Virus record (IMG/VR): IMGVR_UViG_3300020429_000529
Span: 134,762 to 198,761 of that record
DNA: 64,000 nucleotides
Direction: 5' to 3' (one strand)
From: a virus
Shown here piece after piece: positions 45,907 through 64,000 of this stretch. Each line of letters starts with the position of its first letter. The stretch's first letter is position 1. The position numbers were made by a program, and so were the translations under genes. The notes under the pieces were generated by a model. That model was not told where the DNA came from. It searched no databases and saw nothing but the letters and a program-made list of their open reading frames with translations.

Positions 45907-47438
45907 GCCGCGAAGTAACTCTCCGAATCACAAATGTCAATACATATGTCGAGTCCTCGCTTGATTCGATGACCTATCAGAACTTCAAGAAGGTCATGGG
46001 ATTCCGAGACGACAAGGCGATGTGGCGCGCGAGGAAAGTCCAAGAGAAGCTTGAGTCCCAAGGCAAGAATGCCAGTTGGGTCAAGAAATGGGACGGAACG
46101 CAGACGACCGTCGTGTATGACAAAAAGACCCGCAAGTCGTACTTCCCGACCGGCCTACTTTCTCGCGCAAGAGAGTTCTTCGGCGACTGCGAGTTCGATA
46201 TCAACTTGGTCGATCAGCGGACTCAGGTCCACCGTTCAACCGGCTACTCGATGAGCGAAGAGTACGAGCCGAGAGACTACCAAGGTAAGATCAGGGACGA
46301 CGCCTGCAACAAGGGCCGAGGCATCATCAAGATGGCGACGGGCGGAGGCAAGACCGCTACCGCTGCTTCGATCATCTCTGAGCTTGCCGTTGATCCAACC
46401 ATCTTCTATGTGACTTCCAAGGATCTGCTCAAGCAGGCTCGCGATGAGTTTCAGCGATTCATCTACCTGAACGGTTCCCCTGTCAAAGTAGGAACAGTCG
46501 GCGACGGTCAGTTTGATCTTCAACCGATCACGATCATGACGGTTCAGACAGCGATCCGAGCCCTCGGAGAGCGATGGACTCGTTTCGACGAAGAAGACGA
46601 TTCGGCCAAGACTGAGAAGCAGAAGCTCAACGAGAAGCAGAAGAAAGAACTCAAGGACTTCATTCGAGGCGCTGGCCTCATGATGTGCGACGAGGTTCAG
46701 CACTGGGCCGCAAAGACATGCCAGACTATCTCTTCTGCCTCTGAGTCCGCAAGATACCGCTTTGGCCTCTCTGCGACTCCTTGGCGAGATGAGGGCGATG
46801 ACATGCTGATCGATTCCTGCTTCGGCAAGGCGATCTGCGACATCTCTGCGTCGTTCTTGATTGATCGAGGCTATCTCATTAAGCCAACGATCTACTTTGT
46901 CCATCACAAGAAGCCAGGCATGGAGGGCGCTTATCCGACTGTCTACCAAGAAGGTATCGTAGAGAACCAGGAGCGTAACCTCTTGATCTCGAATATCTCT
47001 CGGAAGATGGTTGATAGCGGTCGCCAGGCTCTTATCTTGGTTCGCATCGTTGAGCATGGCAACATTCTTGAAGCGATGACGCCAGACAGCTTCTTCATTC
47101 ATGGCTCTCATACTGGTAAGCAGAGAGAAGCATGGATCGACAAGATGAGAAACCGAGAAGCTCCGATTACGATCGCTACTTCGATCTTCGACGAGGGCGT
47201 CGATGTCAAGTGTCTTGATTCGCTGGTGCTTGCTGGCAGCGGCAAGAGTCAGACGAGAGCGTTGCAGCGCGTAGGTCGAGTTCTTCGGCCATTTACCGAT
47301 AAGTCGAGTGGTTTCGTAAAGAAGGATGCGTTTGTTGTCGATTTCCATGACAACATGAAATACATGCTTGCGCATTCTCGAAAGCGCCGCAAGATTTACG
47401 ACACCGAGCCAGCCTTCGAGATCAAGGACTGGAAGTAA
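45903..47438 (+). CDS. SF2 DExH-box DNA helicase (UvsW/Res-subunit-like)
   Basis: Walker A MATGGGKTATAA, motif II MMCDEVQHW, motif III GLSATPWRD, motif V IATSIFDEGVDV and motif VI QRVGRVLR. Confidence 0.8.
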   Translation: MSREVTLRITNVNTYVESSLDSMTYQNFKKVMGFRDDKAMWRARKVQEKLESQGKNASWVKKWDGTQTTVVYDKKTRKSYFPTGLLSRAREFFGDCEFDINLVDQRTQVHRSTGYSMSEEYEPRDYQGKIRDDACNKGRGIIKMATGGGKTATAASIISELAVDPTIFYVTSKDLLKQARDEFQRFIYLNGSPVKVGTVGDGQFDLQPITIMTVQTAIRALGERWTRFDEEDDSAKTEKQKLNEKQKKELKDFIRGAGLMMCDEVQHWAAKTCQTISSASESARYRFGLSATPWRDEGDDMLIDSCFGKAICDISASFLIDRGYLIKPTIYFVHHKKPGMEGAYPTVYQEGIVENQERNLLISNISRKMVDSGRQALILVRIVEHGNILEAMTPDSFFIHGSHTGKQREAWIDKMRNREAPITIATSIFDEGVDVKCLDSLVLAGSGKSQTRALQRVGRVLRPFTDKSSGFVKKDAFVVDFHDNMKYMLAHSRKRRKIYDTEPAFEIKDWK

Positions 47439-48616
47439 TGGATCGCAAAAGCGTAGAATCAACGGACCTCTTCGATGCAGATGACTGGATCGGAGATGTC
47501 AAAGATGTGCAGAACCGCCTTCATGCCGTGAGTAATCCCTATCGAGGGAACAAACGGAAGATGCTTATCGATTTGGCTTCGGTCTGTCGAGAAGAGGGAC
47601 TGCAAGAAAAAATCGAAGGCGGTCAGGTTCTTGACCTATTCTCAGGAAGCGCTTTCTGTAGCTATCTTTTCAAGAGCATGGGCGCTGCTGTTTGGTCGAA
47701 TGACCTTTTGGCCTTCTCGTATCTCAGCGCTGTTTCTCTTGTTGAGAACTCGACAGTCATTCCCTCGAAAGAGCAGATCCGATTCATTCTCAAGAACAAG
47801 CCGACTGATTGCGGCACTCGCATCAGGGACAACTATGTCGGCGTTCGTTTTACCGAGGAAGAAGCTGAGACTCTCGATCGCTGGATTCGCAATCTTGAGA
47901 TTCAGCATGGCGACCGACCTATCGCAGAGCTTGTTGAGTTCTACAACGATATCGATTATGCGGTAGAGAACCTGGGCGAAGACTTTGATCCAGATTCGCA
48001 TCGTTCGGCTGCTCATCTCTTTGCTCAAGAGGCGATCATGTTGTTGCACTTCATTGTGCGGACAACGGATCTGGGCGGTCGATTGAACAACGGACAGGTT
48101 GTCGCCCGAGTTGACCATCGTATTGAGAATAAAGGGCGGACGTTCATTGAACGAAACATTCGTCCATACAACTTGCATTTCAATAATGGCCTCACTTCTG
48201 TTGCAACTCGTATGGATGCCATCGATCTGCTCAAGCAGTTTGATCTGAGCGATCTGGATCTCGTTTACATCGACCCTCCGTATGGAGGCGATCAGAGCGA
48301 TTATGCCAAGATGTACGAGTTCTTTGAGGACTACCTTGGTTTCTCGGATATTCACAACGAGTGGGAGAAGGAGCGGTTTGCGAAGTCTAAGACTTACGCT
48401 GAAAGCTTCGATGAACTTCTCTCATTATTGCCAAAGCAATCGCCCTGGATCTTCAGTTACAACGATTCCAGTTGGGCTTCTGGCGAAGAGATCAAAAACC
48501 AGATTTCAAAGTTTGATCGCAGTCGTGTTGTAATGCACGAAGTCGATTACGAGTATCAGTATCGGGCGAAGGACAACTCCGCTGGAACTGAGTATGTGAT
48601 AGTGGCGCATCCTTGA
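47438..48616 (+). CDS. N6-adenine DNA methyltransferase (Dam-like, alpha class)
   Basis: Motif I VLDLFSGSAFCSYLF near the N-terminus. Motif IV VYIDPPYGG about 230 aa downstream. Confidence 0.65.
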   Translation: MDRKSVESTDLFDADDWIGDVKDVQNRLHAVSNPYRGNKRKMLIDLASVCREEGLQEKIEGGQVLDLFSGSAFCSYLFKSMGAAVWSNDLLAFSYLSAVSLVENSTVIPSKEQIRFILKNKPTDCGTRIRDNYVGVRFTEEEAETLDRWIRNLEIQHGDRPIAELVEFYNDIDYAVENLGEDFDPDSHRSAAHLFAQEAIMLLHFIVRTTDLGGRLNNGQVVARVDHRIENKGRTFIERNIRPYNLHFNNGLTSVATRMDAIDLLKQFDLSDLDLVYIDPPYGGDQSDYAKMYEFFEDYLGFSDIHNEWEKERFAKSKTYAESFDELLSLLPKQSPWIFSYNDSSWASGEEIKNQISKFDRSRVVMHEVDYEYQYRAKDNSAGTEYVIVAHP

Positions 48617-49563: not shown

Positions 49564-52500
49564 ATGGCGGACCCTCTTGTCAAAGAAGCGGAGAAAGAGT
49601 TCAAGGCATGCGCCTCGGATGATTTCAACAATGACCTTCTTGCGCTTATCAAAAGTCGTCACCCTTTGGTCTTCATCTCTTCGCACGAAGAGAAGAGACT
49701 TCTTTCTCACCTGAACAATCTCTGCATTGCTCGCAACTACGATGCGTATGTCTGGGACTGCTTCGGCGGTCTTCGTCATCTTGCTACTGACAAGCAGGTT
49801 GATGCGGAGGATGGAAAATCCTCTCCCGACAAGAGCAATCCCGAAGCGGCTCTCAACTCGATCATTCGTCGCATAGAAAAGTCGCAGGCGGATATCAGGA
49901 GACGAAGAGAAGAAGGCAAGGAGCCCGCCAACAATGGCAGCATCTATGTTCTCCTGGACTTCTACAAGTATTTCGAGCGTTTGCAGCCCGCTATTCAGCG
50001 CAGGTTGAGACATCTTGCAACTCACGCCAAGGCTGCAAGCGTGATTATGACAGGTCCGTCTTATTCGAGCGTGCCCGCGCTCGACAAGGACATTGCTGTT
50101 CTTGACTTCCCGTACCCTAATGAGTACGAGATTGGTCGGGTTCTTGATACCTCGATCGAGATTGTTGAGAACAAGCAGGCCTTCACTCATATCAAGAACA
50201 TCCGCAACCATGTCAAGAAGCGGAGAGAAGACATCATCAATGCCGTCAAGGGCTTGACTCTTGCGGAGGCTCAATCGGCATACTTTAAGTCGCTGGTAAT
50301 GGGCGATCGTCTTGGCCTCGATCCGTTCGATGTCGAAACGATCATGAAAGAGAAGCGATCCATCATCAGCAAGAGCGATATTCTTGAGTTCATCGCTCCG
50401 AAGGTTTCGCTCGATGATGTCGGCGGCCTGGACAATATGACGGAATGGTTCAAGGCTCGACGATTGGCTTTCAGTCATGAAGCTCAGCAGTATGGCCTCC
50501 CGATGCCCAAGGGGGCTTTGCTGCTCGGGGTTTCTGGCGGAGGAAAGTCGCTAACCGCTAAGGGCGTTGCGAAGCAATGGAACATGCCTCTGCTTAGGCT
50601 TGATTTCGGAGCCTTGTTCAACTCTCTGGTCGGCGCTTCCGAGGAACGAAGCCGCATGGTCATTGACCTTGCTGAGGCCGTCGCTCCTTGCGTGTCCGGC
50701 GATACTGTCATTCAGGACATCAACGGTAATGAGTACGTTATCGAGGATCTTCTCAATGACGATGGAGAACTGAAGAACAACGAACTCTACATCTTTGGAT
50801 TCAACGAAGAAACGAAGAAACTTGAGCCTACCAGAGTTCAGGGCGTTATACGCCATGCGAGCAAGAAAGAGATGATCCGCATCTCGACTGCTCATTCTTC
50901 GATTGAAGTCACCAAGGACCATCGGGTTATGGTCAATCGAGATGGCGACCTTCACTGGGTTGAGGCTCAAGAGATTGACAAGGGCGATCTGGTTATGGCT
51001 CCCAAGCTCTTCATGCGCCGCTGCAAGAAGCCCGATTGGAAGTCGGCCATCTCGATCCCTTACGACTCAATGAAGGGACAAGAAAAGGGTCATCACATTC
51101 TCTTCTCCAAGAAGAAGGGACACTTCTGCGTCGTCAACATGTTCAACGGGTTCAATCCCTCTGAGTTGTTCTACATGGTTGGCCTCATTGATGGCGGAGG
51201 CTGGATTGATGCAGAGACCGGAAAGGTCTCGATCAGCCTTGACAACTGGGAAATGACTCACAATTCGACAACGCTTTTTTGCGAGATGTTCGGAGTTGAG
51301 CCGCTGATCGAAGGCAACAAGCGGACTGGTTTTCGTATCGAGACAGAGAACAAGATCGCTGGCGACATTCTCTCGTTTGCCAGAGAGAACTTGATGAGTC
51401 AGGAAGATGAATACATTAGTCACTACCTGAGCGGCGTCATGGACGCGAGCGGCGACATTTACGCCGACAAGAAGTTCCCCAAAGTCATCTTCAATGTCTC
51501 GAATGATTTTGGGGTTCAGGATCGGGTCGCCAAGGCGATGCATGTCTTTGGCATTCTTGCTCCTAAGAGAAGCAAGTCTTCGATTGTGATCGATACGAAC
51601 TTCGATATGGAGAGCGCTGCGATCGCTCTCGATCTTCGGTACGAACCGCTTGGTAGCGCCTTGGCTGGTATTGTGAGAAACCGTCTCGGCAAGGACAACA
51701 GATCGATTGGTTACAAGTTCGGTAGCTCGTTGACGAAGGACAGAGATCGTTTCGATTTGTCGCGAGCAGACTTCAGCTTGCCTTCTCAGACCATCGCCTC
51801 GTATGAGAGAGGCAAGACGGTCCCGTTTGACAAGGCGTATGAGATCGCTGAGAAGATCGCTAAGGTTGCTCCGAGCGAGGTTGCGATCAAGGATACCTGC
51901 GTTGAGCTTATGCAGAGCGATCTGGTCGGCGTTGCTGTAACCAAGATCGAAGAAATCGGCAGCAGATACGCTTACGATCTTGCTTGCGAGAAGAATCACA
52001 ACTTCATCGGCAACAACATTCTGGTCCATAACTGCGTTCTTTGGTGGGACGAGATCGAAAAGGGTCTGTCTGGCGGCGTAGGGCAGGGCTCTGGCGACTC
52101 GGGCACTACGAAGCGAGTCATCTCTACGTTCCTCACATGGATGCAAGAGAAGACGGCACCTGTCTTTGTAGTCGCCACGGGCAACAATGTCCATGATATC
52201 CCGCCCGAGTTCATGCGCGCAGGTCGTTTCGATGAGACTTTCTGGATTGATCTTCCTGGCAAGGATGGTCGAGAGCAGATCTTCCATATCCTGCTCGGTC
52301 GCAAGGGAAGAGACCCGAAGACCTTTGACATCGAACGTCTTGCTGAGGAAACAAAGGGATGGACAGGAGCCGAGATCGAAAAAGCGATCCATGATGGCAT
52401 GTTCATTTCATTTGCTGACAACAAGAGAACTCTCACTACAGAAGACATCTCTGTTGCTATCTCTAAGATCAGGCCTCTTTCTGAGACCCGAAAAGAAGAA

Positions 52501-52611
52501 TTGCAACAGATGAGGACATGGGCTAAGGAGCGTTGCACGTTTGCCAACACGGACGTTGATGGCGATGGCAATCCTGATGTTCCTGATATCGATCTTCACG
52601 GGAAGAAGTAA
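49564..52611 (+). CDS. Classical AAA ATPase (Cdc48/FtsH-type ATPase module) interrupted by an intein
   Basis: Walker A LLGVSGGGKSLTAKG. After the intein, Walker B CVLWWDEIEKG, sensor-1 VVATGNN and SRH/Arg-finger IPPEFMRAGRFDETFWIDLP. The predicted spliced product is about 567 aa. Confidence 0.75.
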   Translation: MADPLVKEAEKEFKACASDDFNNDLLALIKSRHPLVFISSHEEKRLLSHLNNLCIARNYDAYVWDCFGGLRHLATDKQVDAEDGKSSPDKSNPEAALNSIIRRIEKSQADIRRRREEGKEPANNGSIYVLLDFYKYFERLQPAIQRRLRHLATHAKAASVIMTGPSYSSVPALDKDIAVLDFPYPNEYEIGRVLDTSIEIVENKQAFTHIKNIRNHVKKRREDIINAVKGLTLAEAQSAYFKSLVMGDRLGLDPFDVETIMKEKRSIISKSDILEFIAPKVSLDDVGGLDNMTEWFKARRLAFSHEAQQYGLPMPKGALLLGVSGGGKSLTAKGVAKQWNMPLLRLDFGALFNSLVGASEERSRMVIDLAEAVAPCVSGDTVIQDINGNEYVIEDLLNDDGELKNNELYIFGFNEETKKLEPTRVQGVIRHASKKEMIRISTAHSSIEVTKDHRVMVNRDGDLHWVEAQEIDKGDLVMAPKLFMRRCKKPDWKSAISIPYDSMKGQEKGHHILFSKKKGHFCVVNMFNGFNPSELFYMVGLIDGGGWIDAETGKVSISLDNWEMTHNSTTLFCEMFGVEPLIEGNKRTGFRIETENKIAGDILSFARENLMSQEDEYISHYLSGVMDASGDIYADKKFPKVIFNVSNDFGVQDRVAKAMHVFGILAPKRSKSSIVIDTNFDMESAAIALDLRYEPLGSALAGIVRNRLGKDNRSIGYKFGSSLTKDRDRFDLSRADFSLPSQTIASYERGKTVPFDKAYEIAEKIAKVAPSEVAIKDTCVELMQSDLVGVAVTKIEEIGSRYAYDLACEKNHNFIGNNILVHNCVLWWDEIEKGLSGGVGQGSGDSGTTKRVISTFLTWMQEKTAPVFVVATGNNVHDIPPEFMRAGRFDETFWIDLPGKDGREQIFHILLGRKGRDPKTFDIERLAEETKGWTGAEIEKAIHDGMFISFADNKRTLTTEDISVAISKIRPLSETRKEELQQMRTWAKERCTFANTDVDGDGNPDVPDIDLHGKK
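50689..52032 (+). mobile_element. Intein (448 aa) with LAGLIDADG-type homing endonuclease motifs, inserted immediately upstream of Walker B of the AAA ATPase
   Basis: Starts at Cys (APCVSGDTVIQ) and ends ILVHN followed by extein +1 Cys (CVLWWDE). Internal LAGLIDADG-like motifs MVGLIDGGGWID and LSGVMDASGDIY. Confidence 0.7.
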
Positions 52612-53505: not shown

Positions 53506-55094
53506 TGAGGGATAGGAAAGAAACACAAGAGAAGATACTGCATATTCTGCTCACCACGCCGGATTCGGTGAGCGCTCTCGTTGCGCATCGCATCGGCCCT
53601 GAGCATTTTGACCCGATCTTTCGTCCGCTTCTGCATGGCATTTTCCATGCTCAGTCTAAGGGGGCGAAGCTTACTGAAGTCGGCTACATTGACTTCATTG
53701 AAAAGGCCGTTACTTCAGGTAAGTATTCGGAGTGGGTCGGCAAGAAGGTTGACAGTCCTAAGCAGGCTGTTCTTCGAGAAAAGGCCATGCTGTTTGAGGC
53801 GTTCGGTCTTCAGACAGCCGAAACCGATGACATCGAAGTCTACATCGATCGCCTCAACGAAGATCGAATCAGAGAGCAATCTGAACGACTCTTCCAGAAG
53901 TTCAAGGAAGATGCCAAGAAGAACTATCCCGAAGCGATTGGTCAACTGTCTGAAGGTCTTGAGAAGATCTCGGTCTCAACAAGCGAGAACAAGTCCAACT
54001 GGGTGTACCTGAACGAAGATAAAGAGAGCTTCGTTGGCAAGCTACGAGCCGAGAGAGAAAACCCGTCTGAACGTTTGTTGACAGGAATTTCTGAGCTTGA
54101 TGATTCGATTACGGTCGGATTGCAACCAGGATCTCTGACTCTGTTCGTTGCTGATGTTGGCGGCTTCAAGTCAACGATGATGCTCAACGTTGCGCTGAAT
54201 GTATGGCGCAAGTATCACAAAGATGTTCTGTTTATCAGCCTTGAGATGCCAGCGGATATGCTTGAAGCAAAGATCGCTGCAAGAGAGACTGGTATCGCGA
54301 ACGAGAAACTGAGCAAGCCAGAACTTTTGACCGACGCCAATCTTGATCGCATCGAGAAAGAATGGGACAACTTCCATTCCATGCCGCATCGCTTCGTTAT
54401 CGAAGATACCGAGGAACGCCTCAAGGTTTCAGACATCAAAGCTAAGATCGAGAAGAACATCTCTTTCTTCAAGCCCCGCTTGGTAGTTATTGACTATATC
54501 ACGATTCTTTCGCCAGAGAAAAGCTTTGCGAACAAGGCATCTCACGAATGGGTAGGTCATTGGTGTAAGGATCTGCGTCAGCTTGGACGCAAGCATGGGT
54601 TTGCCATCATCTCCGCTGCTCAGCTTGGACGAGAGGCCATCAAGCGTCTTCGTTCTCAGAAAGAGGGCAAGCAGACTGTTGGTTCGGATGACCTTCGAGG
54701 CTCGCATGACTTCTCGGCAGACTCCGACAACATCTATGCTCTTGTACCTGATCCGAGCCAGCCTCAGCAGCAGCTTCAGTTGTTCTGTATCAAGGCTCGT
54801 TACGGCAAGAAGACATTCGGAGGCGTCAATCGAGCGATGCTGAATGTCAATCCTGATCTGTGTCGCATATCAGGGGCAACGGATGCGGCATGGTCTTCTG
54901 ATGACTTTGATGATGGCTCTGACGATGCCGAGTTTATCAAGAGACAAGAGAGCGCAAGCACGGGAATGTCGTTTGAAGATCAAGATGACCTGGATCTCGA
55001 TGGAGACCCCTCTCCTTCTGTTGTAACGAAGAAGCCCAAGAAGGAAAAGAAGAAGAAATCAACTGGTACATTGGAGTTTGACGAGTTCGACTAA
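53505..55094 (+). CDS. dnaB: DnaB-family replicative DNA helicase
   Basis: DnaB N-domain-like start. RecA-fold motifs GGFKSTMMLNVALNV, ISLEMPADML, VVIDYITILS, AIISAAQLGREA and DLRGSHDFSADSDNIYAL. Acidic then Lys-rich C-terminal tail. Confidence 0.75.
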   Translation: MRDRKETQEKILHILLTTPDSVSALVAHRIGPEHFDPIFRPLLHGIFHAQSKGAKLTEVGYIDFIEKAVTSGKYSEWVGKKVDSPKQAVLREKAMLFEAFGLQTAETDDIEVYIDRLNEDRIREQSERLFQKFKEDAKKNYPEAIGQLSEGLEKISVSTSENKSNWVYLNEDKESFVGKLRAERENPSERLLTGISELDDSITVGLQPGSLTLFVADVGGFKSTMMLNVALNVWRKYHKDVLFISLEMPADMLEAKIAARETGIANEKLSKPELLTDANLDRIEKEWDNFHSMPHRFVIEDTEERLKVSDIKAKIEKNISFFKPRLVVIDYITILSPEKSFANKASHEWVGHWCKDLRQLGRKHGFAIISAAQLGREAIKRLRSQKEGKQTVGSDDLRGSHDFSADSDNIYALVPDPSQPQQQLQLFCIKARYGKKTFGGVNRAMLNVNPDLCRISGATDAAWSSDDFDDGSDDAEFIKRQESASTGMSFEDQDDLDLDGDPSPSVVTKKPKKEKKKKSTGTLEFDEFD

Positions 55095-55714
55095 TGAGTT
55101 ATGTCATCGATCAAATCTCGTCGTCATACAAGATCTCTGAGTATCTCGCAGACAGAGGTATCCATCCCAAGAAGGAGCATGGAGATCGCAAGATGTATCC
55201 GTGCCCGCTTCCTTCTCATACGAATGATAGCCATCCCTCATTCTACCTGTTTGACAAGGGCGATCATGAGGACTTCCATTGTTTCGGTTGCAAGGCTGGC
55301 GGAGGGATAATCCAGTTCGTCAGCGAGTTTGAGAATATCTCGATCAAGGATTCGATCTCGAAGCTTGCATCGAGTCTCAATCTCAATGTCGAAGATGCTA
55401 TCGATCATATTGTCGCCGAGCTTACGAATGTAGCAAGAGATGTCATTGTTGACGAAAACGACCTGCTTCATACTTCGATGTTCATCAGTCGTATCAGTCA
55501 CGAGCATTTGAGGCGGTGCGATTTTGATGCTGCTGAGCTTGCTGCATGCGAGAAAATGTTCAAGCTTGTTGACAAGTTCATGATACAACAGGACCAGCAA
55601 TCGATCGAAGAGATCTCATCGCTGTTGCCGACTCACCTCAGAAAGAGGTTCGCTGCATATACGAAGAAGAAGTCGGCAGAAGAACGTGAGTCTATGACTT
55701 CATGGGATATCTGA
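55094..55714 (+). CDS. DnaG-type primase zinc-binding (CHC2) domain protein, stand-alone, no TOPRIM domain
   Basis: CPLPSHTNDSHPSFYLFDKGDHEDFHCFGCKAGGGIIQFV matches the CHC2 primase zinc finger. The protein is only 206 aa. Confidence 0.65.
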   Translation: MSYVIDQISSSYKISEYLADRGIHPKKEHGDRKMYPCPLPSHTNDSHPSFYLFDKGDHEDFHCFGCKAGGGIIQFVSEFENISIKDSISKLASSLNLNVEDAIDHIVAELTNVARDVIVDENDLLHTSMFISRISHEHLRRCDFDAAELAACEKMFKLVDKFMIQQDQQSIEEISSLLPTHLRKRFAAYTKKKSAEERESMTSWDI

Positions 55715-56478
55715 TGAACTATGACATCCGAAACATTGACTGTTTGAACATCGAGGATGATTCGTTCTCGCTGATCTATCTTGACCCTCCTTATAGCTAC
55801 AAGGGCGAAGACAGTTACTATGGGGTGGGAGATGACTTTCATGAGTATCTGTCGTTCATGTACGATCGACTGAGCAGACTCGAAGAGGTTCTTGATGAGA
55901 ACGGCAACATCGTAGTTCATGTTGACTACAAGGCTGTTCACAACATTCGGGTCATGATGGACTCGATCTTTGGTCGTGAGAACTTTCGCAACGAGATTAT
56001 CTGGTGCTACAGCAATCCATCCACGGTCGAAAGTCATCTTCCGCGCAAGCATGATAATCTGCTTTGGTATGGCAGAGGCGAGTATGTCTTTAATCCTGAG
56101 AGAATCCCTCACAAGACCAAGATGAGCGTTGGAGGCGATGCGGCCTGGTCGAAAGAGAAGATTCCTTGGGAGCATTATAGAGACAAGGGCAAGCTCCTTG
56201 AAGATTGGTGGACCGACATTCCTGCTCTCTGCAGGAACGAGAAAGAGAAGACGGGCTATGCAACTCAGAAGCCGCTGGCCCTAATGAAGAGAGTCGTCTC
56301 GCTATGGAGCAATAGAGGTCAACGGGTGCTTGATCCATTTTGCGGAAGCGGCTCGTTCCTTGAGGCTGCCAGCCGTCTCGGTCGGGTGAGCGTCGGCTGC
56401 GACGTGAATCAGGATGCCGTAGAGATAGCTGAAAGACGATTGGATGATATAGAAGAGGACTTGTTTGCCAATGCGTGA
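55702..56478 (+). CDS. Beta-class DNA methyltransferase (DPPY; probable m6A or m4C)
   Basis: N-terminal motif IV LIYLDPPYSYKG. C-terminal motif I LDPFCGSGSFLEAA. This is the circular permutation typical of the beta group. Confidence 0.7.
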   Translation: MGYLMNYDIRNIDCLNIEDDSFSLIYLDPPYSYKGEDSYYGVGDDFHEYLSFMYDRLSRLEEVLDENGNIVVHVDYKAVHNIRVMMDSIFGRENFRNEIIWCYSNPSTVESHLPRKHDNLLWYGRGEYVFNPERIPHKTKMSVGGDAAWSKEKIPWEHYRDKGKLLEDWWTDIPALCRNEKEKTGYATQKPLALMKRVVSLWSNRGQRVLDPFCGSGSFLEAASRLGRVSVGCDVNQDAVEIAERRLDDIEEDLFANA

Positions 56479-57289
56479 TGAAATCATCCATGCCGACGTA
56501 CTTGATGGACTCAAGAAGATACCTGACGAATCGGTGTCTCTTGTCTTCACATCTCCGCCTTACAACGTGAACATTCCGTATCGCAATCATGCGGATGGTA
56601 TGCCGTATGAGATCTATCTTGACTGGCTCAAGCAAGTCTGGACCGAATGCTATCGAGTTCTCCGTCCTGGCGGTCGTCTTGCGATCAACATTGATTCGAT
56701 GGTCAATCATGAAGAGGATCGAATCGCAAAGAGCGCCGATGATACGGGTCGAGAATACTTCCGTCCCATCTACTCTGATCTTTGCATCATGAACAAGGAC
56801 ATCGGTTACAACTTCCGATGCGACATCTGCTGGTACAAGCATCAGGTTGTTGGTAGAGCAACCGCATGGGGCAGCTATCAGTCATGCTCGAATCCGATTG
56901 TTCGTCGCAACCATGAATACATCCTGGTCTGGAACAAGGGGCCTTGGCGTCTTGATCCTCCCGAGAAGGGTGTCAAGAGCGATCTGACAGCAGAAGAGTT
57001 TCAGCAATGGACAATGAGCTATTGGCCCATTTCTCCTGAGACGCAGAACCGAGGGAACCATGAGGTTCCATTCCCTGTTCGTCTTGCTCGACCTGTGATT
57101 AAGCTTTACTCGTATCCTGGCGATACGGTTCTTGATCCCTTTGTCGGATCGGGAACTACTGCGTATGCGGCAAGCATGCTCAATCGCCACTACATCGGCA
57201 TTGATAATGATGCCGAGACGGTAAGGTATGCCAGAGATCGCATCGATGCAAACGTTGATCTGTTTGCGGGTATGGGAGCAGAGATATGA
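56465..57289 (+). CDS. Beta-class DNA methyltransferase (SPPY; probable N4-cytosine or N6-adenine)
   Basis: N-terminal VFTSPPYNVNIPY. C-terminal LDPFVGSGTTAYAA. Confidence 0.7.
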   Translation: MPMRDEIIHADVLDGLKKIPDESVSLVFTSPPYNVNIPYRNHADGMPYEIYLDWLKQVWTECYRVLRPGGRLAINIDSMVNHEEDRIAKSADDTGREYFRPIYSDLCIMNKDIGYNFRCDICWYKHQVVGRATAWGSYQSCSNPIVRRNHEYILVWNKGPWRLDPPEKGVKSDLTAEEFQQWTMSYWPISPETQNRGNHEVPFPVRLARPVIKLYSYPGDTVLDPFVGSGTTAYAASMLNRHYIGIDNDAETVRYARDRIDANVDLFAGMGAEI

Positions 57290-58771: not shown

Positions 58772-59047
58772 ATGCCAACCTATGTCTACGCCATACTGGA
58801 TGATGAGGGGAACAGAACAGAGGAAACTTTCGAAGTTTTCCAGAAGATGAGTGATGAGCCACTGACGGAAGAACCAGAAACGGGGAGGCCATGTCAGAGG
58901 ATTATCACGGGCGTAAACGTTGCCCACAGCGGACCAGCTTGGGACTGGTGCGAATCAACGAAGCGGTACATCAATACGATGAAGCCCAAGTATATCCGAG
59001 ACGATAAAACAGGTGTACGCAGGAAGTATCCCAAGGGAGGGGTCTAA
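58772..59047 (+). CDS. FmdB-family-like small protein with degenerate zinc-ribbon
   Basis: MPTYVYAILDDEGNRTEETFEVFQKMSDEPL resembles the FmdB N-terminus MPIYEY-C-CG-FE-QKMSD-PL, but the Cys ligands are replaced. Confidence 0.45.
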   Translation: MPTYVYAILDDEGNRTEETFEVFQKMSDEPLTEEPETGRPCQRIITGVNVAHSGPAWDWCESTKRYINTMKPKYIRDDKTGVRRKYPKGGV

Positions 59048-59049
59048 TC

Positions 59050-59445
59050 ATGAGTAACGATTTCAGAAACGCCAAGAGCGAGCAACTTCGTCGCATGCTC
59101 GAAGAAATGTCAGACAATCTTGATCGAACCGAGAAGCCAAAAGAGACTGAGTATGATGCGGATTCTCGCAGACTCGAAGAGCTTCAGCGAATGAAGAAGG
59201 CTCAGGGTATGACCCCTGGTTTGACCAAGCTTGGAGATGTTGATGAAGAGCGATATCTCAAGCTGTGCGAAGCGTTCGAGAACATGCCGATGGGCAAAGA
59301 TGACAATGGCAATGTACGGACAGGATTTACCTGCAGCGCTCCTCCTGGATGGAAGGAAGAGTACGAGCGATACATGGAAAATCGCCAGCGTCATCTTGGC
59401 GGAGGCGGAAGCGTGAAGCCAGTCGGAAAAAGACGCTGGACTTGA
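59050..59445 (+). CDS. Hypothetical protein
   Basis: 131-aa ORF immediately following; charged, no recognised motifs. Confidence 0.45.
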   Translation: MSNDFRNAKSEQLRRMLEEMSDNLDRTEKPKETEYDADSRRLEELQRMKKAQGMTPGLTKLGDVDEERYLKLCEAFENMPMGKDDNGNVRTGFTCSAPPGWKEEYERYMENRQRHLGGGGSVKPVGKRRWT

Positions 59446-59491
59446 AGTGAATCGATCGTCGGCCTGAGCGCGTTTAGTCGATAGATGGCGC

Positions 59492-60895
59492 ATGAGTAAG
59501 CGCCGAATTACGAACGCAGATTTTTGCCACCTGCACAACCATACTGAATACTCGTCCTTCGATGGATTGAACAAGATTGGCGAGTTCCCTCTTGCTGCGC
59601 GCAAGAAGGGCTTTAGAGCCCTGGCGATGACCGATCACGGTAACATCGGCGGGGCTGTTAAGTTCATGCAGAACTGCCTTGCGCCTGCAAAGGATGAAGA
59701 AGGCAACGAGATCCCTCCCATCAAGCCTATCGTTGGCTGCGAGTTCTATCTCGCCAAAGACAGGCACGCCCATTCGTCAAAAGAACAAACCGACAAACGC
59801 CGAGGCAATCGTCACCTTGTTTTGATGGCGAAGAACTGGACTGGCTACCAGAACCTATGCCGTCTTTCTGAGCATAGCTGGACCGAGGGCGTCTACATTG
59901 ATCCTCGCATCGACCTTGAACTGCTCAACAAGTATCATGAGGGACTAATCTGTACCTCCGCATGCTTGAGCAGCGTCGTCAACGCCAACCTCTTGCATGA
60001 TCGCTATGACCAAGCCAAGAAAGCCGTAACGGTACTCAAGGACATCTTCAAGGACGACTTCTATCTCGAAGCGATGTATCACGGCATCGATGCTGAGGGA
60101 ATGATTATACCTGACATTCTGAAGCTTGCTGAAGAGATGGATGTCACTTGCTATTGCACGAACGATTGCCATTACTGCGAGAAATGTCAAGGCAAGTCTC
60201 AAGAGTTGCTTATGGCGATGTCTACATCTCGTTGCATGAACGATCCGAATCGATTGCACTTTCCGTATCATGAGTTTTACCTGAAGTCTGCTGCAGAGAT
60301 GGCTCAGGCTTTTGGTTCGCATCCTCATCTTCTGACAAATACGATGGGCGTTGCAGAGAAGATCGATTCAGACAACATCTTGACCAACATGACAAGCGGT
60401 ATGCGTTTGCCGAGATTCGACATCCCCGAGGGTCATAGTTCGCCTCACGAATACCTCAGACATCTTGCGTATGAGGGCATGAGGAATCTTGGTTGGGATA
60501 CGAGCGAGAAGCACAAGGCTCGTCTTGAGATGGAGCTTGGCGATATTTGGGTTGCTTGGGAGAACAACAAGTACGACTTTGCAACGTACCTGTTGATTGT
60601 TCGAGATTACATGCAAGAGGCTCGCAATCGAGGCATTTTGACCGGATGCGGTCGAGGCTCGGGCTACGGAAGCGTTCTTCTCCGTTGCTTGGGGATTACC
60701 TACGGACCCGATCCTCTTGAGTACGATTTGCTGTGGGAGCGTTTCCTCGGCTTCGACGACAAGTTCTTCGTTCAAGAGAGCGACTTCGGCCTTGATGAAG
60801 CCAAGACCGCCGTTGACATCGTTGCGGATGCTGCTGATGTCGATGACGAGGCGAGAGAGGTTGATGACGATCTCGGAGGGGTAGACAGGTACTAA
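59492..60895 (+). CDS. dnaE: DNA polymerase III alpha (DnaE) N-terminal fragment: PHP domain plus start of palm, ending in a non-homologous acidic tail
   Basis: PHP motifs FCHLHNHTEYS and ALAMTDHGNIGG. Palm motif GCGRGSGYGSVLLRCLGIT...DPLEYDLLWERFL aligns to E. coli GPGRGSGAGSLVAYALKIT...DPLEFDLLFERFL. The ORF then diverges and stops. Confidence 0.8.
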   Translation: MSKRRITNADFCHLHNHTEYSSFDGLNKIGEFPLAARKKGFRALAMTDHGNIGGAVKFMQNCLAPAKDEEGNEIPPIKPIVGCEFYLAKDRHAHSSKEQTDKRRGNRHLVLMAKNWTGYQNLCRLSEHSWTEGVYIDPRIDLELLNKYHEGLICTSACLSSVVNANLLHDRYDQAKKAVTVLKDIFKDDFYLEAMYHGIDAEGMIIPDILKLAEEMDVTCYCTNDCHYCEKCQGKSQELLMAMSTSRCMNDPNRLHFPYHEFYLKSAAEMAQAFGSHPHLLTNTMGVAEKIDSDNILTNMTSGMRLPRFDIPEGHSSPHEYLRHLAYEGMRNLGWDTSEKHKARLEMELGDIWVAWENNKYDFATYLLIVRDYMQEARNRGILTGCGRGSGYGSVLLRCLGITYGPDPLEYDLLWERFLGFDDKFFVQESDFGLDEAKTAVDIVADAADVDDEAREVDDDLGGVDRY

Positions 60896-60896
60896 A

Positions 60897-61550
60897 ATGT
60901 TCAACATCCCGGTTGCTTGCGAGCCTTGGATGAAGATGCATGTCCGTCAATACCGCCCATCTAAACAAGAAGCGGCGACGAGACCATGGTACATCAGTCA
61001 GGCTGAATGGGATTCGGCAGAAGTCGTCATAGACAAGAAGCCTAAACGAATCCTGGATTACGGTTGCGGCCTCGGCAGAATGAGCGTTTATGTTCACAAG
61101 CAGTTTCAGGATCCGGCTATTGAGTACGTTCTCTTTGATGGAGACTCAACTCCAAGTAAGCAAGGCGCTGGCACTGGTTTTACTCGTCAAGAAATCTTCT
61201 ACAACAATCTGAGGATGACAGAACTGTTTTGCAGGTCCAATGACTTGACCAACTACATGATTGTGAACGCTGAAGAACAGCCCTTGTCAGATGCAGGAGA
61301 GGTTGATCTTGTGATGTCTTTTCTGTCTCTTGGGTATCACTATCCGATTGAGGACAAGCTTGATGAGATCATTGAGATACTGAATCCCGAAGGAACTGTT
61401 GTTGCAGGCGTCAGAGAGGGGCTCTATCTTCCTGAGATGTTCATCAGCAAGTTCAAAAGCGTAGAGCTTCGTCCTATCAAATACTTCGGGCACTATTCAG
61501 AGAATGAAGAGCTACTGATTTTGAAAAGACCCAAGAAACGTCATGGATGA
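60897..61550 (+). CDS. Class I SAM-dependent methyltransferase-like protein (not an obvious DNA methyltransferase)
   Basis: Motif I ILDYGCGLGRMSV, post-I acidic LFDGD and VDLVMSF. No DPPY/NPPY or PCQ motifs. Confidence 0.5.
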   Translation: MFNIPVACEPWMKMHVRQYRPSKQEAATRPWYISQAEWDSAEVVIDKKPKRILDYGCGLGRMSVYVHKQFQDPAIEYVLFDGDSTPSKQGAGTGFTRQEIFYNNLRMTELFCRSNDLTNYMIVNAEEQPLSDAGEVDLVMSFLSLGYHYPIEDKLDEIIEILNPEGTVVAGVREGLYLPEMFISKFKSVELRPIKYFGHYSENEELLILKRPKKRHG

Positions 61551-62166
61551 TCTTCTGTCACAAGCTATTGGCAATCTCGATGGCCTACACAAGGTGAAAG
61601 AGATCGAATTAAGGATTCGGCAGCTAACGCTTGCCGAGCTTGCAACTCTCAAAGGACCAGAGATTAGCTTCTTGTTGAACTACATACGAGACGGTTCGAG
61701 CAGAGGCAACATCATGGAGAAGTTCATACAAGCCAAGCTTGGATTTGAGAAGACTCCTAACGGGACAGATGGAGACCTTATAGATCCCGATACGGGTTTG
61801 ATTTACGAGATCAAGTTCAGTAACGGAGAGAACGACAAGGCGCATTCTTGGAAGCAGGTTAGGCAAGATGAGGATGTCGATGTTCATATCTTTGTTGCTC
61901 ACGATCAAGTAAAAGCGCAGTTTGTTCCGTTCTGCATGGATCGTCAGCAACTTGATTCTCATATTCGCAGACACAAACCGTCTAAGACTCACAAGACATC
62001 AGAGGCTATGAAGACTTTGAGTATGCCTCTGAAGAATGAGGAAGAGTGGTTTAGGGCGTATTGCGATTTGGAAATGGCAGAGATCATCAATGGCATAGAG
62101 GTCCGGGGTCGTTCTCGTGACATGGCAGATCTTGCTCAAGTAGATCTGTTTGCAGACGAGGTGTGA
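61543..62166 (+). CDS. Putative PD-(D/E)xK-fold nuclease-like protein
   Basis: GDLIDPDTGLIYEIKFS matches the D...(D/E)-x-K core arrangement (PD ... E-I-K). Confidence 0.35.
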   Translation: MDDLLSQAIGNLDGLHKVKEIELRIRQLTLAELATLKGPEISFLLNYIRDGSSRGNIMEKFIQAKLGFEKTPNGTDGDLIDPDTGLIYEIKFSNGENDKAHSWKQVRQDEDVDVHIFVAHDQVKAQFVPFCMDRQQLDSHIRRHKPSKTHKTSEAMKTLSMPLKNEEEWFRAYCDLEMAEIINGIEVRGRSRDMADLAQVDLFADEV

Positions 62167-62506
62167 GATGTTGAGCTATGCAGCGGCGCAGGACATCATC
62201 CGCATGGCTAAGCGAGCGGGTGAAGAGATTGCAAAGCAGGTCGAGCCAAGGTATGAAATCGATACGCAAGGTTGGACTTATGAGTTCTGCAGCCGTTATC
62301 ACTCTCATCTTTTGCGGATCTGCTGCTATTGGCAGGCAAAGCCCGGCTCAATGAAAGTGGATGACGAAAGTGACGAGGCATATTGGGCCGAAATGAAAGA
62401 GATGGATCGGCAGTACCAGTTGATTCAAGATTTGCTCAATGCGAAGATCGCCAAGAGCAAGTACGCCAAGTTGAACGTCGAGGCACAGTTTAGCGCAGGT
62501 ATTTGA
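62150..62506 (+). CDS. Hypothetical protein (118 aa)
   Basis: ORF within the dnaE-interrupting insertion. ATGA overlap with the downstream dnaE fragment. Confidence 0.4.
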   Translation: MQTRCEMLSYAAAQDIIRMAKRAGEEIAKQVEPRYEIDTQGWTYEFCSRYHSHLLRICCYWQAKPGSMKVDDESDEAYWAEMKEMDRQYQLIQDLLNAKIAKSKYAKLNVEAQFSAGI

Positions 62507-64000
62507 TGGCAGAAGTTGCAGAAATCACCAAAGAGATACTTGGCTCGGTCAACGAGGACGTTCGTTCTTCTGTCGCCCAAGAGCTTAAGCAGATGACCGA
62601 GACCGAAGGTCTTGATGGCAAGCCCATCATCAACAAGTTCTACAGTATTTGGAAAGCGTCAGACGGCAAGAAGGGTCACGACAACAAGATCAACTCTTGG
62701 ACCGCCTTTCATCTCGGGATGACCGACAAAGAACCTGACGGCGATTTCCTGCCGAGGCGTCGTTGCTTTGCTCGTAAGGGCTTCCCTGATATCGATTCAG
62801 ACTTTGACGATGAGCATCGCGATGAGATCTACGACTACATCATCGAGAAGTATGGTCGAGAGAACGTCGGCAACATCGGTACATATCAGTCGATCAAGCT
62901 GAAGTCGTATATCCGTCAGGTCTTTCGAGCCCTTGATCCAGACAAGGTGTTCAACCCCAAGGTTGCGCTGAGCGAGGACAAGGCAGCCAAGCGAGAGAAC
63001 AACGAGAGATGGCGCAAGGAGACAAACGAAAAGGGAGACGAGATCTCCAAGTCGTTGCCCAAGCAAATTGGCGCAACGATCAGAACAACGGATGAGGAAG
63101 GCAATGAGGTTATCATTTGGACTGTTGAAGACGGTGTTAAGCATTGCGATGACTTTGCAAGATACATACAGAAATACCCTGATCTACTTGCATACTCATC
63201 CGACATTCAGGGTCTTCTTTCCAACTTCAGCGTACATGCCGCAGGAATCGTTATTTCAAGCGTACCTCTTGATTCTATTGCTCCGCTAAGGCGAAGCAAA
63301 AAGAAGAAGAGCGAACTCAGCGAAGATGATGACAACCCATATGAGCTTGCAACGCAGTTTGCGAACGAAGACCTTGAGTTCATGGGTCTCATCAAGTTTG
63401 ATATCCTTGCCATCGCAACGCTGTCTGTTGTGCAGAGAACGATCAATCTGGTCAAAGAAAACTACGGCATCGACATCGATGTAGAGAACCTTGCCCTTGA
63501 TGATAACAAGACGTTTTCGCTGTATCGGAAGGGCGATCTGAATGGCGTCTTCCAGTGCGAAAAGCACGGAATGCAGCACACGATGAAAGAGATCGGCGTT
63601 GACCGATTCGAGGACATCATCGCCGGAGTTGCCCTCTACCGCCCAGGCCCCATGAAGTCCATTCCCTCATACGCCGCTCGTAAGGCTGGCGATGAACAGG
63701 TTGAGTTTTTTCATCCAAAGATTGAGCCTCACGTTAGGGACATTCTTGGCAAGACCTACGGCATCCTTGTTTATCAGGAACAGGTCATGCAGATCTGTAA
63801 CTCGCTTGCGGGCTTCTCGATCACCGATGGCTACGGCATGATTAAGGCGGTCGGCAAGAAGATTCCTTCGCTCATGGCGAAGTATGAGAAGCAGTTTATT
63901 GAGGGCGGCGTCCAGAATGGCGTTCCTGAGAATGTCATCAAGCAGTATTGGGATCAGTTCATTACGCCGTTTGCTTCTTACGGTTTCAACAAGTCTCACG
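62506..64000 (+). CDS. dnaE: DNA polymerase III alpha (DnaE) C-terminal fragment (partial, continues past window end) with about 95-aa non-homologous leader
   Basis: RKGFPDIDSDFDDEHRDEIYDYIIEKYGRENVGNIGTY aligns to E. coli DnaE ...[37 protein letters not shown]. Later GVFQ, ALYRPGPM, LVYQEQVMQI and FNKSH. Confidence 0.8.
   Translation, partial: MAEVAEITKEILGSVNEDVRSSVAQELKQMTETEGLDGKPIINKFYSIWKASDGKKGHDNKINSWTAFHLGMTDKEPDGDFLPRRRCFARKGFPDIDSDFDDEHRDEIYDYIIEKYGRENVGNIGTYQSIKLKSYIRQVFRALDPDKVFNPKVALSEDKAAKRENNERWRKETNEKGDEISKSLPKQIGATIRTTDEEGNEVIIWTVEDGVKHCDDFARYIQKYPDLLAYSSDIQGLLSNFSVHAAGIVISSVPLDSIAPLRRSKKKKSELSEDDDNPYELATQFANEDLEFMGLIKFDILAIATLSVVQRTINLVKENYGIDIDVENLALDDNKTFSLYRKGDLNGVFQCEKHGMQHTMKEIGVDRFEDIIAGVALYRPGPMKSIPSYAARKAGDEQVEFFHPKIEPHVRDILGKTYGILVYQEQVMQICNSLAGFSITDGYGMIKAVGKKIPSLMAKYEKQFIEGGVQNGVPENVIKQYWDQFITPFASYGFNKSH

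Follow-up and report, generated by a model that had tools for sequence, protein, structure and literature searches.

Split phage polymerases, and genes in pieces more generally, are already known. The family B replicative polymerase gp43 is reportedly split as 43A/43B in some T4-like phages, and we know of no report of an overlapping duplicated segment in that case. The NrdA of Aeh1 is split by mobE (nrdA-a / mobE / nrdA-b), and cannot assemble without the tails of its fragments (Crona et al. 2011, PMC3045599); group 2.2 jumbo phages have a split minimal DNA polymerase III alpha (Pol III alpha), whose N-terminal part, which binds nucleoside triphosphates (NTPs), and C-terminal part, which binds Mg and DNA, are predicted to reconstitute (Iyer et al. 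2021, PMC7824862); and in marine metagenomic DnaE loci a split intein is accompanied by a free-standing endonuclease (Dassa et al. 2009, PMC2677866). Here we analyse a gene for DnaE, the Pol III alpha polymerase, that is encoded as two neighbouring genes in a 64,000-nt stretch of DNA (the window), positions 134,762 to 198,761 of IMG/VR record IMGVR_UViG_3300020429_000529. The source genome is that of a huge uncultivated marine phage, roughly 500 kb in size, of which the analysis covered about 74 kb, and this phage is seen in marine data of TARA, ENA, JGI and NCBI. The two-gene, PHP-containing DnaE found here is a variation on these arrangements, and widespread in huge phages. In our judgement it is probably an obligate two-gene enzyme, a non-covalent two-subunit polymerase that is broken within a partly duplicated palm insert and to which the genes lodged in the gap are secondary.

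The window carries dnaE on two open reading frames (ORFs), dnaE-N (467 aa, 59492..60895) and dnaE-C (62506..64000 and on past the window end; 678 aa in full, as read from locus L008 of the same genome), with three further ORFs, A, B and C, between them. This layout, described in an earlier note on the same DNA, is repeated in independent assemblies. These five ORFs and every feature placed within them below lie on the + strand. By ORF and Pfam analysis, dnaE-N is made up of a PHP domain, a first palm half and a tail, and it can be aligned to the DnaE of Thermus aquaticus (Taq), Mycobacterium tuberculosis (Mtb) and E. coli. Its PHP domain (aa 13-195, 59528..60076) matches positions 1-162 of the 164 in the Pfam PHP profile (E=3e-44), and H13, H15, D24, H49, E84, H108, C158, D225 and H227 are invariant in the alignment of relatives; we take these nine residues to be the metal binders of proofreading-competent PHP domains. 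The same protein covers positions 1-97 of the 260 in the Pfam DNA_pol3_alpha profile and contains the GS motif of the Pol-beta-like core, GRGS at aa 387-390 (60650..60661), invariant in 8/8 sequences. In Pol-beta-like nucleotidyltransferases the GS loop binds the incoming nucleotide. The motif is intact in the N fragment only, within an invariant LTGCGRGSGY, and the unit that bears it, here called U1, matches canonical DnaE at E=6e-34 (hhalign).

The remainder of the enzyme is found in dnaE-C, which matches DNA_pol3_alpha over positions 69-260 and DNA_pol3_finger at E=7e-50 (Pfam), and whose full-length form ends in an HhH domain (HHH_6, E=4e-11); an OB fold (PF01336), present in bacterial homologues, gave no match in it. 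The catalytic strand FPDIDSDFD (62782..62808), with the two aspartates of the DxD motif, is invariant from F93 to D101 and aligns to Taq MPDIDTDF, and Asp299 in GLIKFDIL (63400..63402), aligned to Taq KMDFLG, is the counterpart of Taq D618, the third catalytic aspartate, the Taq residue number having been obtained by counting in the alignment. The palm motifs are hence divided, with GRGS in dnaE-N and PDIDSDFD and KFD, aligned to Taq D463, D465 and D618, in dnaE-C. Of the DnaE-type features sought, PHP, GS motif, three catalytic aspartates, fingers and HhH are present, spread over two polypeptides of 467 and 678 aa; a single chain of ~1100-1200 aa that ends in an OB fold or tau-binding domain is not. 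Each half is itself a well-populated family: homologues of dnaE-N form more than 120 clusters of 405-521 aa, except for one 601-aa entry bearing an intein, and those of dnaE-C more than 120 clusters of about 640-680 aa. As a separate observation, C fragments (e.g., L008 15040-15051) end in a conserved ..KKGV..G..F(G) or ..DDLFGG, resembling a C-terminal sliding-clamp-binding peptide.

In the arrangement that we propose, dnaE-N would supply the PHP domain, the first Pol-beta-like palm half and the GRGS nucleotide-binding loop, and dnaE-C the DxD strand and third catalytic aspartate together with thumb, fingers and HhH domain. The halves would assemble non-covalently into a heterodimer through the normal palm interfaces and the insert formed by U1 and a second unit, U2, described below, and so create a composite active site.

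Past ERFL, where its alignment to canonical DnaE ends, the N fragment continues into a tail of three parts: a proximal segment (GFDDKFFVQESDFGL, aa 420-434, 60749..60793) with 74% mean identity to relatives; an acidic linker (aa 435-461, 60794..60874), variable in length and sequence, with 26% identity; and a C-terminal GGVDRY followed by a TAA stop (60875..60895), invariant in 8/8 sequences. The short-tailed N fragments P0050, P0061 and P0064 terminate at this proximal segment, just past ..DF. The GGVDRY motif appears as GGIDRW in P0118, is missing from unsplit relatives and is found in only part of the split forms. A comparison of 116 tails by hhalign detected no homology to canonical DnaE beyond ERFL, and HMMER extensions of the N fragment to E. 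coli residue 420 are not meaningful. A resemblance of the tail's ..FVQESDF.. to the catalytic strand PDIDSDF, aligned with one another by MAFFT, was considered as a sign that the tail is a relic of that strand; the idea was rejected because the hhalign alignment stops at ERFL and a hidden Markov model (HMM) of the strand scores real tails no higher than shuffled ones. By analogy with SSB, T7 gp2.5 and T7 gp4, which have acidic, aromatic-ended C-termini, the acidic tail with its aromatic end may be an added docking peptide.

On the other side of the break, dnaE-C begins with a leader whose first 30 residues (62506..62595), a variable N-terminal helix, have 29% identity to relatives, and whose residues 31-92 (62596..62781), here called U2, have 65%, a conservation comparable to the 54-70% of the catalytic core. 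In searches with phmmer against proteins of solved structure, residues 31-142 of the C fragment align to Taq DnaE 394-510 and residues 361-423 of the N fragment to Taq 397-458, and leader residues 31-95 align to Taq 394-458, the stretch that N-fragment residues 361-423 also cover. Since both align to this one Taq stretch, dnaE-N and dnaE-C share about 65 residues of overlapping homology, and their coordinates on the Pfam DNA_pol3_alpha profile likewise overlap, at positions 69-97. When 94 leaders were trimmed ahead of the PDID strand and combined into a profile, it matched the same region of 85 bacterial DnaE sequences with 87.8% probability (hhalign; E=3.3e-6, 61 colinear columns). Against full-length canonical DnaE (1164 columns) the sole match of this profile, at E=9.6e-5 over 74 columns, is to the GS unit at columns 300-379. 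In HMM scoring, real sequences clearly surpass shuffled ones, with a median of 8.7 bits and a maximum of 16.6, versus -1.8 and 6.4 for shuffled ones. Within U2 the motif itself is eroded, from GRGSxxGS to GHDNKINS in the window and G.xN.INS in the family. On the profile evidence, the leader from about residue 7 onward, and most clearly over residues 31-92, is a putative diverged duplicate of the GS-motif unit, and the earlier proposal that homology resumes exactly at the next conserved block, after a novel leader, does not hold.

The origin of tail and leader becomes clearer when unsplit relatives are considered. An exhaustive search of cluster representatives, followed by one seeded with a fused hit, found three architectures in one lineage, whose members are 45-55% identical to each other; among them were the uninterrupted forms of dnaE for which a comparison with related genomes had been suggested, with and without an insert. 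Proteins of class A (P0130, P0278, P0285, P0286; ~995 aa) have no insert, with about 50 residues from GRGS to PDID, and continue after WERFL as WERFLAFKTDE..GKRVFARPGFPDIDSDFD. Those of class B (13 clusters, e.g., P0132 and P0276; 1071-1117 aa) are unsplit but have an insert, with about 155 residues from GRGS to PDID, in which tail-like and leader-like sequences are continuous; in P0131, P0132 and P0276 tail and leader are contiguous within one ORF. Class C, comprising the window and its relatives, is split, with fragments of 430-480 aa and 640-680 aa broken between tail and leader. The lineage-specific insert is about 105 aa long and lies between ERFL and PDIDxD. In class B it starts as WERFLGFDxKxFxxxSDFG, is followed by a linker, and resumes as ..ELxxMxxTEGLxxKxxLxxFYxIWK..G..N.INSxTAYxLGxT..P..FLPxRRAFARxGFPDIDxD.

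An AlphaFold2 (AF2) model of the class B protein P0276, based on an alignment of 138 sequences, has a predicted local distance difference test (pLDDT) score of 94.7 and a predicted template modelling (pTM) score of 0.91, and matches Pol III alpha crystal and cryo-electron microscopy structures with template modelling (TM) scores of 0.7-0.87. The insert is confidently folded in this model, with helices at 444-458, 462-477, 486-497 and 512-516 and a strand at 532-535, in a helix-helix-loop-helix order that mirrors that of U1; leader residues 1-30 are the counterpart of helix 444-458. The sole dip in confidence in the insert region is at residues 431-440 (pLDDT 71). On the P0276 scale the short-tailed N fragments stop at about 430 and the C fragments start at 440-447, and because these ends bracket the dip, the point of fission is the flexible linker that joins U1 to U2. 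Tail and leader are, then, parts of one folded palm insert in unsplit relatives, and the break is outside the canonical fold, inside the lineage-specific insert. The earlier description of the acidic tail as non-homologous stands in so far as no homology to canonical DnaE is seen past ERFL, but the tail is not new, being part of an insert that unsplit relatives possess. The diagnosis of gene fission fares similarly: it survives in that no intein, intron or sequencing error accounts for the break, while the novelty that it had ascribed to tail and leader is contradicted by P0276, P0132 and P0131, where the two are contiguous.

The break is shared far beyond the window. A search of IMG/VR with the N fragment gave seven contigs of 101-488 kb, at 62-78% identity, and the same break occurs in these seven loci (L001-L007), in two further loci (L012, L013) and in three TARA gene pairs. 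The N fragments of the seven IMG/VR relatives are ~464 aa long and end in GGVDRY*, and their C fragments, of 658-680 aa, have the conserved leader. In every locus read the dnaE halves are neighbours, and the gap between them accommodates anything from 0 to 5 genes, which belong to three or more unrelated sets. It is empty in L002, where it amounts to 14 bp (TAAGCTAGCAGGTAGATATG), and in the short-tailed L012, where the two ORFs overlap by 8 nt; it holds a single ORF, 50% identical to ORF C, in L001, and an unrelated 151-aa ORF in L013; in L003-L007 it contains an ORF of ~175 aa and a Dam-type methyltransferase, to which a phrog_6408 protein and one or two phrog_4806 proteins may be added; and it measures 14, 11 and 460 bp, respectively, in the TARA pairs P0006/P0396, P0021/P0398 and P0118/P0480. 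Because the shared break comes with empty or differing gaps, the fission is old and the gap a site of variable cargo. Once made by fission, such a gap would serve as a tolerated insertion site and a hotspot for cargo that includes methyltransferases.

In the window, the cargo consists of three ORFs. ORF A (217 aa, 60897..61550) has a class I S-adenosylmethionine (SAM)-methyltransferase fold according to Pfam, as the earlier note had recognized, with scores above the gathering cut-offs of both Methyltransf_23 (31.2 bits; cut-off 27) and Methyltransf_11 (25.7 bits; cut-off 21.2), and also matches the methyltransferase region of PADLOC mad2 (E=8.7e-7). For ORF B (207 aa, 61543..62166) the sole lead is a PD-(D/E)xK-like motif (E59, D78/D81, E89-x-K91); no match was found in Pfam, PHROGs, NCBIfam or PADLOC, nor any relatives in IMG/VR, and a single-sequence AF2 model is unusable (pLDDT 45.8), although a low-confidence secondary-structure pattern sits alongside the motif. 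Its earlier designation as a PD-(D/E)xK-like nuclease thus comes down to a motif. ORF C (62168..62506) is 112 aa long from its ATG, with an alternative start at 62150, and its stop overlaps the dnaE-C start (TGATG). The GC content at third codon positions (GC3) is 0.51 in ORF A, 0.50 in ORF B and 0.62 in ORF C, against about 0.60 in both dnaE halves, and the closest relative read, L001 (78% identical), is without ORFs A and B. ORFs A and B would be recent because their GC3 deviates from that of the flanking genes; by their composition they are apparently foreign arrivals, and ORF C the apparent older resident of the gap. As a separate matter, the cargo of L003-L007 (e.g., L004 11407-13650) pairs an ORF of 170-205 aa and unassigned function with a Dam-type methyltransferase, type II or orphan. 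Behind this pair there is often the phrog_6408 protein, with one or two phrog_4806 paralogues whose annotation is histidyl-tRNA-synthetase-like. In joining a small ORF to a methyltransferase, the pair parallels ORFs B and A of the window, and it has the appearance of a restriction-modification module.

The first account of the locus had the 1.6 kb insertion splitting the gene. In its full form, this alternative holds that the three-gene cassette split an intact dnaE, and that the tail and the 95-aa leader are new and hold the halves together, by the mechanism of Aeh1 nrdA/mobE. The cassette does lie exactly between the halves, many relatives also have cargo in the gap, tails that assemble a fragmented enzyme have a precedent (PMC3045599), and the absence of the GGVDRY end from fused relatives implies that part of the tail arose after fission. 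Against this, the break, the tail and the leader are found without cargo, in L002 and L012, or with other cargo; the closest relative lacks the compositionally foreign ORFs A and B; the leader is homologous to DnaE itself, and the proximal tail and leader are contiguous in fused relatives. Within the cassette, ORFs A-C gave no HNH, GIY-YIG, LAGLIDADG or Vsr-like match, ORF B having its motif only, so that no homing-endonuclease family is detected, and there is no target-site duplication or terminal inverted repeat at the cassette edges. A split caused by an inserted mobile gene is not what these loci display, as the same split accompanies an empty gap or unrelated cargo. We consider such an origin unlikely: the three-gene cassette did not cause the split and is later, swappable cargo.

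A covalent rejoining of the halves, by a cryptic split intein or a group I/II intron across the cassette, was also weighed. In its favour, members of this gene family often bear inteins, marine metagenomes have yielded fractured DnaE genes (PMC2677866), and the leader contains an Asn-Ser dipeptide (IN|SW). However, neither the 71-aa tail region nor the 95-aa leader has a Hint/intein match in Pfam at E<=1, although the same scan detected LAGLIDADG_3, Intein_splicing and Hint in the intein pieces of L007, and an Rfam scan of 59000-64000 at E<=10 returned only chance-level snoRNA and miRNA matches and no intron, in agreement with the earlier reading of the junctions. A hidden split intein was tried specifically, with GYG|S of the N fragment and IN|S of the leader as its junctions, and rejected: there is no Hint signal, and the putative N half of the intein is canonical DnaE sequence. 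The tail, moreover, starts within clear DnaE sequence, tail and leader are kept as folded protein in fused relatives, and in cargo-free relatives stop, Shine-Dalgarno (SD)-like site and start are just 11-14 nt apart. We regard rejoining as extremely improbable; since the junction lacks both Hint-domain halves and splicing residues in context, the window's products stay separate. Inteins do occur elsewhere in the family: in L007 (8153-10762 and 12142-15411) the N fragment bears a classical LAGLIDADG intein in its PHP domain (TND|CFVAG...VVHN|CHYC), and the locus is a textbook "fractured gene", with a polymerase in three pieces by two mechanisms.

We give hardly any credence to the locus being an assembly artefact or a pseudogene, or to recoding that yields one protein. 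The identical window protein is present on 16 contigs in public assemblies, 12/16 of them 0.2-1 Mb in size and including assemblies of 498,610 bp and 502,461 bp from different samples, and gene order is identical at all four contig places shown, each from another sample. Because 16 contigs carry the exact protein and the places shown share their gene order, the break is real and no assembly or sequencing artefact; hundreds of homologues per half also speak against a pseudogene. The one point in favour of recoding comes from L012, whose overlapping ORFs could give a frameshift product in the +1 frame, yet no slippery site is evident there; in L002 the 14-nt spacer contains a second in-frame stop, making two, and the start codon is in another frame; and in the window the halves are 1.6 kb apart, with three ORFs and several stops between them. 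A sequencing error or frameshift, named at the outset as a possible cause of the break, is contradicted by the same stops and by the 16 contigs. The L012 overlap (7292-7299), where the N-fragment stop overlaps the TTG start of the C fragment by 8 nt (TTGTCTAA, +1 frame), suggests termination-reinitiation coupling.

A further possibility is that the two genes no longer cooperate, dnaE-C having become self-sufficient through U2 and dnaE-N an independent PHP exonuclease or phosphoesterase. The colinearity of the C fragment with canonical DnaE extends from around column 300 as far as the HhH domain, this fragment holds all three catalytic aspartates, and PHP domains can act alone, RNase AM being among the structure matches. 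Yet U2 is without a GS motif, the N fragment keeps LTGCGRGSGY invariant together with the whole palm half, the genes are adjacent in every locus examined, and fused relatives hold both units in one chain. We think such a parting of ways improbable. The two-subunit polymerase is favoured because neither half has the full active site, both are strongly constrained and they are adjacent in every locus read, and it is all but certain that the two separate polypeptides are made to cooperate. Purifying selection on both halves is seen in the invariant GRGS and PDIDSDFD and in the core-like conservation of U2.

How the architectures are related was examined in a bootstrapped neighbour-joining (NJ) tree of 880 shared columns, with N and C fragments concatenated for split forms. 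The lineage separates from bacterial DnaE with 100% bootstrap, and the clade of the window, with 94%, contains split forms alone, while the other half of the lineage mixes fused, insert-free and split members, with supported mixed nodes such as {P0279, T118, P0285, P0286} (96%) and {P0276, P0278, P0130} (95%); P0135, which bears the insert, lies outside the main clade. T118, a split form, has GGIDRW at its end, a tail motif in common with the window clade. Judged from these sequences, close relatives clearly switch between the split, fused and insert-free states, and the insert-free form has the look of a secondary derivative. A more elaborate history, in which the insert is a tandem duplicate of the nucleotide-binding half, duplication made fission viable, and the linker repeatedly breaks, re-fuses or is lost and acts as a protected landing pad for selfish methyltransferase-plus-nuclease-like cassettes between an essential enzyme's two co-translated halves, is conceivable, though we hold it to be rather doubtful. 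The duplication would have left each future fragment with a copy of the helical unit, so that it could fold alone, and complementary decay would have followed, with the GS motif surviving in U1 and the connection to the DxD strand in U2.

Several points weigh against the two-subunit polymerase with a duplicated insert, or limit its reach. The mutual binding of the halves and the activity of their complex are what we infer from sequence, and the structural model is of a fused relative (52-53% identical). With about 74 kb of a genome of some 500 kb covered, a second polymerase could lie elsewhere. The duplication claim rests on U2 compared with canonical DnaE, at E of about 1e-5 to 1e-6, and a direct comparison of U1 with U2 by BLASTP and hhalign gave no significant match. 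The GGVDR[YW] tail is common to split forms that do not cluster together and, because the states interleave, the NJ tree is compatible both with repeated fission and with fused forms made by re-fusion.

The five ORFs from dnaE-N to dnaE-C abut or overlap, with junctions TAAAATG, ATGGATGA and TGATG, and an SD-like AGGT lies at 62497..62500, 6 nt 5' of the dnaE-C start, within a GCAGGTA conserved in the window, L001 and L002. Such a site precedes 9/10 of the C-fragment starts read (AGG/GGAG in L003-L007 and L012), with none evident in L013. One operon with an SD-like site per gene and abutting or overlapping ORFs would allow co-transcription and coupled translation; promoter-like and terminator-like sites around the cassette are no more frequent than in shuffled sequence. 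A replication module surrounds dnaE, with an SF2 helicase, DNA methyltransferases, an intein-carrying AAA ATPase, DnaB and a DnaG zinc-ribbon protein, and, downstream of dnaE-C and past the window end, RecA and a Toprim protein.

Other genes of this region merit mention in their own right. The AAA ATPase gene (49564-52611, 1015 aa) has an Intein_splicing domain between two AAA matches. The primase is apparently encoded by two genes about 13 kb apart, one for the 206-aa DnaG zinc-ribbon protein beside DnaB (55094-55714) and the other for a 268-aa DNAG_N/Toprim protein after RecA, past the window end (L008 18791-19597), a layout also kept in L012 and L013. Four methyltransferase-like genes fall within 14 kb at the replication module (47438-48616, 55702-56478, 56465-57289 and 60897-61550): one D12, two N6_N4 and one with a class I SAM fold, the last being ORF A. 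Upstream of the module, five giant ORFs (2605, 2816, 1578, 1175 and 3261 aa) stand in a row at 1397-39845, with a GT4 glycosyltransferase gene on each side (283-1440 and 40607-41758); scans of three of them, those of 2605, 2816 and 3261 aa, gave Laminin_B, DUF642, Laminin_G_3/ConA-like or Kelch-repeat domains, and the giant ORFs probably encode fibre or adhesin proteins.

No description of a two-gene, PHP-containing DnaE was found in the literature. The two-gene form is absent, at >40% identity, from 50,697 annotated phage records, which also contain no near-identical DNA, and from 185,579 GTDB species genomes, where the best match, 41% identical, is an ordinary bacterial dnaE. The best protein matches, labelled "Bacteriophage sp." (human faeces), were considered as relatives and set aside, being ordinary bacterial-type DnaE. 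What emerges is a C-family replicative polymerase that appears to work with its GS motif and its catalytic aspartates on separate polypeptides throughout a very large, abundant group of huge marine phages, accompanied, among close relatives, by a comparison series of no insert, fused insert, split insert, and split with cargo. This series is a test bed for gene fission, for interruption of the Pol III alpha palm and for split-polymerase design and, if the duplication reading is true, would be a natural, repeatedly sampled one, in which one could trace how an essential enzyme comes to have several subunits. There is a practical side as well: annotation pipelines would label both halves as "DNA polymerase III alpha", as fragments or as pseudogenes, an error that recognition of the two-gene form avoids, while the form itself marks a phage clade. 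The gap, for its part, may show how selfish methyltransferase-containing modules exploit essential operons.

Set beside the systems with which we began, the window shares features with each and coincides with none. Aeh1 NrdA is its closest functional analogue, in that both divide an essential phage enzyme of DNA metabolism over two adjacent genes with others between them, without intein or intron, and both have a C-terminal tail facing an N-terminal leader across the break and a presumed non-covalent assembly. Unlike that case, the break in the window is ancient, common to hundreds of lineages and present also where there is no intervening gene, no homing endonuclease is identified, and most of the tail and leader pre-exist as a folded insert. 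The split-intein DnaE of cyanobacteria and marine metagenomes likewise has dnaE in two with a gene between, and L007 has this arrangement at a second site, but the mechanism is different, the window junction being without Hint halves. With the 43A/43B form of gp43 the window has in common a replicative phage polymerase made from two genes without inteins, although polymerase family and break point differ. The closest structural precedent is the split Pol III alpha of the group 2.2 phages, which is divided at the same functional boundary as the window DnaE; that version is minimal, without PHP or other DnaE domains, has its halves far apart and accompanies a family B polymerase, whereas the DnaE of the window is near full length, from PHP through HhH, and is encoded by adjacent genes with the break in what appears to be a duplicated insert.

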